NCBI RefSeq assembly: GCF_988242995.1
Contig: NZ_OZ547043.1
Length of the DNA stretch: 64,000 nt
Reading direction: 5' to 3' (one strand)
The notes under the pieces were generated by a model. That model was not told where the DNA came from. It did not search any database and saw only the letters and a program-made list of their open reading frames with translations. Positions 289-1,452 of this stretch are shown here, piece by piece. The position numbers were made by a program, and so were the translations under genes. Each line of letters begins with the position of its first letter. Position 1 is the stretch's first letter.

Positions 289-1452
289 GTGAGGTGTATT
301 GTGGGAAAGGAACTGGATGATATCTGCACCAGCTGTCCGTATATCGATGCTGTAAAACGGCACAAACAACAGCTCGGTGCCATAGAGGAATATACACAGT
401 GGTTAAAAAAAGAACCACGGGCATCTTATTTTTTTCTGTTCCAGCTGTATACCCGCATTCACAATACATTTTTCTCCCAAAAGCAACAACTCCCGTTCAC
501 TCCCGGTGGCACTCACTGCCCGGAACCTGATGTCATCCTTCGGGACTTAACGCTTTCCCCTGGCTACCACAGTGATTATGCCCCTCAACCCATTCCGGAG
601 ATGGACAGTTCTGCTGTTGTTCCCCCAACTAATGAAAACACCTCGCCTCCGGAAGATACTCCCGACAACACTCCGGCCGGAGGCAATACCGGACAAGCGG
701 AAAAGACCAGAAACGCAGGACTCACACCCATTCCTGAAAAACGTTCAGGAATGCCCCCGGAACATCTGCGGTTTGCCACGGGGTTTCCATCGCAACCGAA
801 GATTGCCGGTCCCAGAGAAAAGCCGATGCGCACCGTGCATCCGGATAAAATCTACCGTGAAATTATATGGTTCTGCTCCAGTTACCTGCTGAAATCCGGA
901 CCAGAGGCTACGAGGACGATTATCAACTCAGTATTCTCTGAATGGGCCAGCATAAACAATGATTACCCCTCCCCCTTTTCGTGGGTGGACAGCAGGGACA
1001 GTGAACAGTGTGACTGGTTATGGAACGCCATGCAGGTCCGGTGTGTGGGAACCCCGCTGAATCCCCTTACCCCGGAGCAGAAATACTGGTTTGCCTGCGC
1101 CACGTTTGATAACTGGGAGGGCTGGAATGAGCAACAGGTACAGTTTTTACTGGAAAGTAATCCCAGACGGAACAGAGCGAAGTTTACGCAGGTCTCCTTC
1201 CAGGCCCCCAGGATTCAGCATAAAGCGATTCTTCTTGATGAGCTGAAAAGTGCCCGGGAGCAACAAAAAAGGCGTGATGAACGTGCTGATGGTTCCGTCC
1301 CTCTGAAACTGTCCGGAAAAATCCACAAACAGCTTGAAAGTATTGCCCGAAGTCGTGGTGTCCTCCCAAAAAAACTGCTGAATGAAATGATTGAGCAGGC
1401 GTACCATGATTTGGTGGCAACCAGGCAGAACAGCCAAATCGATTCCAGATAA
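289..1452 (+). CDS. hypothetical island protein (387 aa) with Pro/Thr-rich low-complexity N-terminal half
   Basis: Long ORF in the track (GTG start as listed); no protein family recognised by eye; start codon uncertain. Confidence 0.4.
   Translation: MRCIVGKELDDICTSCPYIDAVKRHKQQLGAIEEYTQWLKKEPRASYFFLFQLYTRIHNTFFSQKQQLPFTPGGTHCPEPDVILRDLTLSPGYHSDYAPQPIPEMDSSAVVPPTNENTSPPEDTPDNTPAGGNTGQAEKTRNAGLTPIPEKRSGMPPEHLRFATGFPSQPKIAGPREKPMRTVHPDKIYREIIWFCSSYLLKSGPEATRTIINSVFSEWASINNDYPSPFSWVDSRDSEQCDWLWNAMQVRCVGTPLNPLTPEQKYWFACATFDNWEGWNEQQVQFLLESNPRRNRAKFTQVSFQAPRIQHKAILLDELKSAREQQKRRDERADGSVPLKLSGKIHKQLESIARSRGVLPKKLLNEMIEQAYHDLVATRQNSQIDSR

Follow-up and report, generated by a model that had tools for sequence, protein, structure and literature searches.

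A hypothetical protein of CP4-44-type islands with a predicted remote likeness to MatP

MatP is encoded by a single-copy core gene and binds matS sites (GTGACRNYGTCAC) in the Ter macrodomain; its taxonomic range is similar to that of the island-borne family described here (Enterobacterales and Vibrio). The ribbon-helix-helix (RHH) of MatP dimerises and binds matS (PMC12756933, PMC8669397), and its sites, GTGAC-N3-GTCAC and GTTAC-N3-GTAAC, are recognised by helix alpha4 and strand beta1 entering the major groove (PMC8669397). The flexible C-terminal coiled coil of MatP is a tetramerisation tail (PMC8669397) and is important for protein–protein recognition (PMC12756933). Here we describe a gene at positions 301–1452 of a 64,000-nucleotide stretch of contig NZ_OZ547043.1 (assembly GCF_988242995.1; the whole stretch is referred to as the window), the product of which carries a C-terminal region predicted to be a distant relative of MatP. 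A prediction made earlier from the letters of the window (hereafter the original prediction) had described this product as an unassigned island protein with a disordered N-terminal half and a C-terminal half that might bind nucleic acid.

The C-terminal region and its likeness to MatP

No curated family covers the protein. Neither Pfam nor NCBIfam contains a match to it, no PADLOC anti-phage defence family reaches E ≤ 0.01, and matches in PHROGs are at chance level (phrog_582, Arc-like, E = 0.32); a word-indexed protein search returns close E. coli relatives only, and a search of the PDB with the single sequence returns nothing. An exhaustive profile search of 1.84 billion representative proteins delineates a small family of 60 proteins at E ≤ 0.001, with named members in Klebsiella, Salmonella, Citrobacter, Yersinia, Kosakonia, Cronobacter, Serratia and Vibrio, all of them 'hypothetical'. 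In an alignment of 28 family sequences (A3) an N-terminal motif, W-L-K-x-x-P-R-A-x-x-F, is nearly invariant and the middle region is variable; a Trp-rich block (PFSWxDxxDEEQCxWxWxYM ... FDxWxGW) is then followed by a basic helix (KAWxQKxxR) and by a C-terminal segment with the strand-helix-helix pattern of RHH proteins. One subfamily is shorter, being without a lineage-specific insertion in the Trp-rich bundle, and its members join the query family at E = 7.6e-12 to 4e-4 in the whole library; a profile of its C-terminal part is referred to as A7.

MatP is the protein of described structure to which this C-terminal region is most similar. With the full-family profile, MatP ranks first in the PDB (E = 0.042) and is aligned from the Trp motif through the RHH. 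Profile A7 matches Photorhabdus MatP (7nyw_I) at E = 6.5e-5, E. coli MatP (4d8j) at 0.012 and Yersinia MatP (3vea) at 0.14, in alignments that cover about MatP residues 7–127. Direct comparison of A7 with MatP in hhalign gives 88% (E = 2.9e-6) over 97 columns, and 77% against a 76-sequence MatP alignment, with MatP residues 9–125 aligned. None of 21,000 composition-preserving MatP shuffles reaches the weakest real score of 15.5 bits, the shuffle maximum being 13.6. Deepening of the MatP profile raised the hhalign probabilities modestly, the added MatPs being at least 87% identical to E. coli MatP, bar one at 69%. A Foldseek search of the PDB with the AlphaFold2 (AF2) model of the island protein gives four hits, three of which are MatP chains, but with E-values of 3–10; a fold search of BFVD with the model is empty.

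The RHH region is the most constant part of this similarity, aligning to MatP residues 93–131 in every comparison. Its sequence is VPLKLSGKIHKQLESIARSRGVLPKKLLNEMIEQAY, it has an isoelectric point (pI) of 10 with a basic helix in front, and the alternating hydrophobic pattern of the strand is present in all family members that have a C-terminus. As modelled, it displays the hallmarks of the RHH superfamily, namely a beta-alpha-alpha unit of ~45 residues with hydrophobic residues alternating along the strand, glycine in the turn and a basic arm. No curated RHH family is matched significantly, the sub-threshold matches being to PF10723 (RepB-RCR_reg; four members, best E = 0.02), RHH_7 (0.035), RHH_1 (0.054) and HicB (0.15), and A7 has sub-threshold PDB matches to the RHH structures 2kel (0.014) and 1x93 (0.47). 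The coiled-coil tail of MatP is absent; the protein ends ~8 residues beyond modelled RHH helix 2, alignments stop at residues 125–131 of the 150 in MatP, and several family members end directly after the RHH. The true matP gene is located elsewhere (locus L007). We conclude from these profile comparisons that the C-terminal ~125 residues conserved in the family are probably remotely homologous to the MatP four-helix bundle and RHH, without the coiled-coil tail, and that the protein is not a member of the MatP family by curated thresholds.

The AF2 model computed with A3 has a mean predicted local distance difference test score (pLDDT) of 77.2 and a predicted template modelling score (pTM) of 0.68; with five close sequences only, the pLDDT is 37. 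Order is predicted for residues 11–62, 151–160 and 181–383, and disorder only for residues ~63–150. Confident helices span residues 13–62, 181–221, 234–296 and 303–330, and the C-terminus comprises a short extended segment (331–338) and two helices (339–352 and 356–382). The parts of the protein, with the coordinates of their coding DNA in the window, are as follows.

331–486, plus strand: residues 11–62, conserved helical hairpin with the motif W-L-K-x-x-P-R-A-x-x-F, W34 and R40 being nearly invariant (AF2 pLDDT 80–95; A3)
487–750, plus strand: residues 63–150, disordered, acidic, Pro/Thr/Gly-rich variable insertion (pLDDT < 50; composition; in-frame indels)
751–783, plus strand: residues 151–161, PPEHLRFATGF ('..ANG..F') motif (pLDDT 91; conserved in the long subfamily)
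841–963, plus strand: residues 181–221, two predicted helices repeating helices 2 and 4 of the downstream bundle (AF2 helices 181–199 and 201–221; hhalign)
964–1290, plus strand: residues 222–330, predicted Trp-rich helical bundle, PFSWxDxxxEQCxWxW ... FDxW ... KAxxQKxxR (pLDDT ~90–97; profiles against the PDB; hhalign; shuffle control)
1291–1425, plus strand: residues 331–375, predicted RHH with strand V333–S338 and helices 339–352 and 356–375 (AF2 pLDDT > 90; alignment to the MatP RHH)

The bundle at residues 222–330 carries the lineage-specific insertion at ~274–306 and has a long basic helix at its end. Helices 2 and 4 of this MatP-like bundle recur internally in residues 176–221 (hhalign 92.5%, E = 4.8e-7), and there is weak self-similarity between the WLKxxPRA motif and the PFSW..QCxWxW motif (hhalign P = 0.007), so that the hairpin at residues 11–62 is possibly helix 1 of a first, degenerate bundle similar to the N-terminal part of MatP. 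The simplest anatomy would thus be a degenerate first bundle with its helix 1 split off by the disordered insertion, a second bundle, and the RHH. Residues 63–150 are rich in proline (18%), threonine (11%) and glycine (9%) and have a pI of 4.4, and the equivalent segment spans 10–126 residues among family members. Since disorder is confined to this segment and its length is so variable, we regard it as an insertion within a folded protein rather than as part of a disordered N-terminal half, and the pattern of lengths suggests that it is dispensable.

These results modify the original prediction in part. Its disordered Pro/Thr/Glu-rich region of 180 N-terminal residues shrinks to residues 63–150, as residues 11–62 form a confidently modelled hairpin and 151–160 a confidently modelled motif. 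The ordered C-terminal half with a basic helical end is borne out by the helical bundles at 181–330 and, after a basic helix, the RHH topology at 331–375, and the suggestion that the C-terminus might bind nucleic acid is now backed by the predicted RHH assignment from AF2 and the profiles. In the curated libraries (Pfam, NCBIfam, PADLOC and PHROGs) the protein is indeed 'unassigned', but its C-terminal region is not: homology to a known family, which had been named as grounds for discarding that description, is found there in the remote relationship to MatP.

The gene and its island

The plus-strand frame is uninterrupted from 289 to 1452, as the original prediction had it, but the start given there does not stand: GTG 289 is merely the first possible start codon after a stop, whereas RefSeq, in WP_000514094.1 and in the annotation of the identical sequence of strain S88, begins the protein at GTG 301, which follows a Shine-Dalgarno-like sequence. 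GTG 301 is moreover kept in E. coli variants with 72–79% protein identity, which have no start codon in the place of GTG 289. The best start is GTG 301.

301–1452, plus strand: coding sequence (CDS) of 383 residues, GTG start and TAA stop (RefSeq WP_000514094.1, 'hypothetical protein'; open reading frame list, S88 annotation, start kept in variants, homologues)
287–296, plus strand: Shine-Dalgarno-like AGGTGAGGTG, 4–6 nt before GTG 301 (read from the sequence)

Full-length variants (372–384 residues, 72–79% identity) stay in frame across the indel-rich middle region. Among three E. coli variants the ratio of nonsynonymous to synonymous substitution rates (dN/dS, Nei-Gojobori) is 0.32–0.85 in the ordered parts and ~0.6–0.65 in the middle region (residues 63–150), where dS is 0.66, several-fold above the ordered parts. 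Because the frame is kept through indels, dN/dS is 0.3–0.85 and conservation of the family reaches Vibrio, we conclude that 301–1452 is a coding gene that encodes a real 383-residue protein, and that it is a conserved gene of the island backbone. Frameshifted copies are common in databases (entries P0013–P0017). An open reading frame of 106 codons in an alternative plus-strand frame (572–892) lies over the insertion region, and its translation is also present in entries P0015 and P0017, which are frameshifted forms of the main gene. We rejected it as a gene, and the presence of its translation in these two entries shows that the main gene commonly decays by frameshift.

The gene is present in 2096 of 5426 complete E. 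coli genomes (39%), in 1963 of them with at least 80% coverage, at one to three copies per genome that are nearly all chromosomal (2,555 matching places). Every record listed in a spread sample of the E. coli ranking annotates it as an ordinary CDS for a 'hypothetical protein'. It is missing from CP4-44 of K-12, plasmid matches are restricted to 3 of 72,556 plasmid records, and a tblastn search of 50,697 phage records finds no relatives. Searches of the searchable literature for the accession, for MatP-like island proteins and for the island backbone returned nothing relevant.

E. coli S88 (NC_011742.1, 2066458–2068057) and many other strains match positions 1–1600 of the window with 100% identity, and by the S88 annotation a CP4-44-type island occupies the window from 1 to ~12,200 with its right-hand part, beyond which lie the core genes yeeA and sbmC, the his operon, and the O-antigen and colanic acid clusters. 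The S88 annotation places after the gene a 'GTPase family protein' (1536–2408), a dynamin-family protein, an RdcB-family protein and a patatin-like phospholipase, and further downstream DUF932, an antirestriction protein, YeeS, YeeT, CbeA and a frameshifted CbtA. The original prediction had placed the gene directly upstream of a YeeP-like GTPase, and this is so: its stop codon (1450–1452) is separated from the GTPase ATG at 1536 by an 83-nt spacer.

Nine Enterobacterales contexts share one gene order, in which Zn-ribbon proteins, YagK/YfjJ or REP_ORF2-G2P, and AlpA are followed by an intergenic region of 0.4–1.6 kb, the gene, a hairpin, the GTPase, and DUF932 and other genes. The AlpA/YagK-YfjJ module is transcribed divergently from the gene in most of these contexts; in E. 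coli islands the nearest module gene is 1.6 kb away and the gene has the same orientation as AlpA. The position is conserved although the proteins are only 20–33% identical, which upholds the earlier suggestion of an island backbone gene, and we conclude that the gene is backbone of CP4-44/CP4-57-type islands (those with a P4-type integrase, AlpA and YagK/YfjJ). Conservation upstream of YeeP-family genes is found in the nine contexts but is not universal: in Vibrio (L094) and at L097 there is no GTPase, and the gene has the YagK/YfjJ-AlpA module on one side and the integrase or island end on the other. The constant partner is therefore the AlpA/YfjJ core and not the GTPase. A 4-kb insertion separates the gene from the GTPase at L006, and in E. 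coli the GTPase with its leader is far commoner than the gene (10,673 versus 2,555 matching places).

Several other features of these islands were observed. In intact islands (L002 8400–10000) about 1.6 kb without a consistent open reading frame lies between the gene and a 200-codon hypothetical gene that follows AlpA; in S88 (L001 8422–11170) this stretch is broken by an IS66 element and contains gene fragments including a partial 'AAA family ATPase', and it may be either a decayed gene or a long non-coding region. The S88-type island is without the Ag43 (flu) autotransporter and the IsrC/IS102 RNA that are found between the GTPase and dynamin genes in related islands (L002 12100–15716, with the Rfam match to IsrC/IS102 at 12217–12452), and the corresponding spacing in the window is only 218 nt (2408–2626). 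Within this spacing, upstream of the dynamin gene (2528–2566), a direct repeat, two copies of ATCGATCGTTA, overlaps a perfect hairpin, GATCGTTATAAACGATC, with several GATC (Dam) sites, and resembles an operator or a terminator. The dynamin-family (798 residues), YjcZ/RdcB-family and patatin-like phospholipase genes at 2626–6991 have overlapping stops and starts and give only weak PADLOC matches (LeoBC, 2.7e-5; phospholipase effector, 1e-4); as cargo of the island, they make a candidate cassette for membrane remodelling or defence.

Conserved DNA on either side of the gene

Among E. coli variants with proteins that differ by 21–28%, conservation of the 300 nt 5' of the gene is 87%, and the non-coding spacer on its 3' side also contains a conserved block.

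224–262, strand not assigned: 13-bp perfect palindrome GTACATCATGTAC (228–240) followed by a T-run, 61–73 nt before the start codon; may serve as an operator or end a transcript that comes from upstream
1442–1519, plus strand: leader of the GTPase gene, with conserved block ATTCCAGATAATTTCAGACAGATATTAT (1442–1469) followed by an intrinsic-terminator-like hairpin and T-run (1480–1519) (islands compared)

The palindrome has the form GTACA-N3-TGTAC, with the length and 5-3-5 geometry of matS, and reaches 19 bp at L006 (13/19-bp form, TCCGTACATCATGTACGGA). Sites like it, with at most one mismatch, occur four times in the 12.2-kb island part of the window where 0.22 are expected (0 of 500 simulations), a pattern that is post hoc and derived from a site that is itself counted; the additional sites are imperfect and, outside coding sequence, are not conserved at L002 or L006. 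In the equivalent region of other genera, 6 of 10 lineages have direct repeats that are exact, 6 nt or longer and spaced by precisely 11 bp, with 0.75 lineages expected (P ~3e-5), and other spacings in the range 8–14 bp give 0–2 lineages. These repeats (CTACG, TTACTACG, ATTACTA and AATCAC) share a TAC core. Dimers of dimers of RHH proteins typically recognise tandem sites in helical phase.

The 5' flank as a whole (1–262, and also L002 9700–9965 and L006) is conserved as much as coding sequence and contains a string of short hairpins, CCGGTTtttcatAACCGG and TTCCGGAA, with TGCCAGtatCTGGCA in addition at L002 and L006, at the end of which are the palindrome and T-run. It could be a structured 5' untranslated region or the 3' end of an upstream non-coding transcript. 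Rfam has no match in 1–262, and RNA folding of this segment gives z = -1.78, which is not decisive.

The 83-nt spacer between the gene and the GTPase contains a GC-rich hairpin and T-run. The block that precedes it is present in all nine islands with the GTPase and absent where there is none, and as a non-coding block (ATTCMARATWATYTCAGAYAKATATTAY) it is nearly the same base for base across genera (window 1442–1535, L002, L008, L010, L012, L096 and L100–L102), whereas the flanking proteins are only 20–33% identical. A hairpin with a T-run follows in eight of the nine islands, differing in sequence, and in Kosakonia (L096) there is a hairpin without a T-run; the T-run is followed by ~20 nt and then the GTPase start. 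The hairpins do not align and no consensus RNA folding of the leader was obtained, and Rfam contains nothing at this position. The leader block could be a promoter with an attenuator, or a short RNA. A second copy of the block, TTGAAAATATTTTCAGATATATATTAC (7048–7074; region 7005–7075), is located after a terminator-like hairpin of the patatin gene (7010–7030) and ~55 nt before the ATG at 7127, and the duplicated block may be a reused promoter or operator of island backbone genes.

Probable role and comparison with described systems

We favour, with moderate confidence, the interpretation that the gene encodes a dimeric site-specific DNA-binding protein, probably a regulator or autoregulator of the island control region, a function that we infer from profiles and models. 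The distant kinship that its ordered part probably has with MatP, itself a DNA-binding protein, makes binding to specific sites in island DNA the most likely activity. The protein would dimerise through its RHH, as do MatP and other RHH proteins, and the beta-ribbon with the preceding basic helix would read a short symmetric or tandemly repeated site. The most likely target would be the island's own control region just upstream, through the 13-bp palindrome in E. coli and the tandem 11-bp repeats in other genera, and binding there would control transcription, including that of the gene itself, where the AlpA/YfjJ module adjoins the rightward genes (GTPase, DUF932, antirestriction, RadC and CbeA/CbtA).

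Several observations weigh against this interpretation. The homology to MatP is remote: with the query-lineage profile hhalign confidently aligns the RHH only (18–45%), although at low stringency a collinear alignment extends over MatP residues 6–139; the Pfam MatP models (PF06303 and PF17414) match none of the 28 members at E ≤ 1; and in a reverse search a shallow MatP hidden Markov model scores family members no higher than shuffles. The palindrome with its T-run scores as terminator-like and is a plausible intrinsic terminator, the 11-bp spacing used in the repeat test was chosen post hoc, and it could instead be AlpA, or a different factor of the island, that binds the upstream repeats. 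The dN/dS of 0.3–0.85 between E. coli variants and the many frameshifted copies indicate that constraint is relaxed in this species. Expression, dimerisation and DNA binding are predictions from sequence and model.

Other roles have to be weighed against regulation of the control region. An island-borne architectural analogue of MatP, using matS-like sites in the island to compact or position DNA, or interfering with the host partners of MatP (MukBEF and ZapB), could for example aid segregation of the excised island or shield it from MukBEF. We consider this rather unlikely, even though the homology covers the MatP bundle as well as the RHH, four palindrome-like sites are present where 0.22 are expected, and the family occurs in Enterobacterales and Vibrio, a range similar to that of MatP. 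The palindrome also has the 5-3-5 geometry and length of matS (PMC8669397), but the coiled-coil tail, which in MatP is important for protein–protein recognition (PMC12756933), is absent, the additional near-sites are imperfect and unconserved outside coding sequence, and the site pattern was recognised post hoc from one of the sites counted. A related and bolder proposal is that the CP4-type islands in Enterobacterales and Vibrio encode a MatP paralogue of their own, of recent common origin with MatP, with matS-like island sites that control excision, replication or segregation or that interface with the host MukBEF or divisome; we regard this too as improbable, but if true it would mean that MatP was either domesticated from mobile elements or captured by them. 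A similarly low probability attaches to the protein being an accessory DNA-binding factor, like TraY, TrwA, NikA or CopG, that acts with YagK/YfjJ (REP_ORF2-G2P, inovirus gpII-like) at an island replication or transfer origin. The constant neighbour is indeed the AlpA/YagK-YfjJ/REP_ORF2-G2P module, divergent across a 0.4–1.6-kb intergenic region that bears tandem helical-phase repeats, and the RHH has weak matches to RepB-RCR_reg; the DUF932, antirestriction and RadC genes downstream resemble the leading-region genes of plasmids. No nick site or origin was identified, however, the RepB-RCR_reg matches are at chance level, YagK/YfjJ are only putative initiators, and in E. coli islands the gene is 1.6 kb distant from the nearest module gene and shares the orientation of AlpA.

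A dedicated partner or adaptor of the YeeP/YfjP-type GTPase, in a two-gene module like that of a centromere-binding protein and its NTPase, would account for the GTPase lying immediately downstream in nine Enterobacterales contexts at 20–33% protein identity. We downgraded this reading because family members occur without the GTPase (L094 and L097); the 4-kb insertion between the two genes at L006, the terminator-like hairpin after the gene in eight of nine GTPase islands (with the Kosakonia hairpin lacking a T-run) and the much greater abundance of the GTPase with its leader in E. coli also make it distinctly improbable. Least probable of all is a decaying or non-functional frame kept only by linkage in a cryptic island. 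Frameshifted copies are frequent, dN/dS between E. coli variants is as high as 0.85, and the gene is missing from K-12 CP4-44, but the full-length frame is kept across the indel-rich region, family conservation spans E. coli and Vibrio and includes Trp residues that do not vary, the confidence of the AF2 model derives from this conservation, and 1963 E. coli genomes have copies with at least 80% coverage, the gene being annotated as an ordinary coding sequence in every record listed in the spread sample.

Over a third of complete E. coli genomes, and numerous other enterobacteria, carry the gene as yet without annotation, and it lies at the junction from which a very common island backbone would be controlled. 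Assignment of a MatP-like bundle and RHH turns this 'hypothetical protein' into a testable candidate site-specific DNA-binding factor. MatP, hitherto an isolated family confined to enterics and their relatives, would at the same time gain distant relatives on mobile elements, which bears on its origin.

Among described systems, small RHH repressors (Arc/Mnt, CopG and MetJ; RHH_1) share with the predicted C-terminus a strand-helix-helix of ~45 residues, an alternating hydrophobic strand and a basic N-terminal arm, together with weak profile matches and a gene located at a promoter region with palindromic or 11-bp tandem repeats. They differ in being single-domain proteins of 45–100 residues, whereas the island protein has several domains, of which the RHH makes up the C-terminal ~12%, and all matches to the curated repressor models are below threshold. 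The RHH accessories of relaxosomes and rolling-circle replicons (TraY, TrwA, NikA and the CopG/RepB regulators) are likewise encoded beside an initiator-like gene, here a putative one, and a repeat-bearing intergenic region, but their RHH is usually N-terminal rather than C-terminal, and the island has no identified origin or nick site and only chance-level similarity (PF10723, E = 0.02). MatP itself (PDB 4D8J, 3VEA and 7NYW; PF06303 and PF17414) differs in length (150 versus 383 residues), in being a single core gene rather than one carried on mobile islands in up to three copies per genome, and in having the C-terminal coiled-coil tail that the island protein lacks; the island protein has in addition an N-terminal hairpin and a degenerate upstream bundle, which is split by a disordered insertion of ~90 residues. 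The two are nevertheless collinear in their predicted elements, with a Trp-containing first helix (ESGWKWKYL in MatP, EQCxWxWxYM in the island protein), a bundle, a basic helix (RARRKRHF and KAWxQKxxR respectively) and an RHH, and the 13-bp palindrome that is the candidate site of the island protein has the length and geometry of matS.

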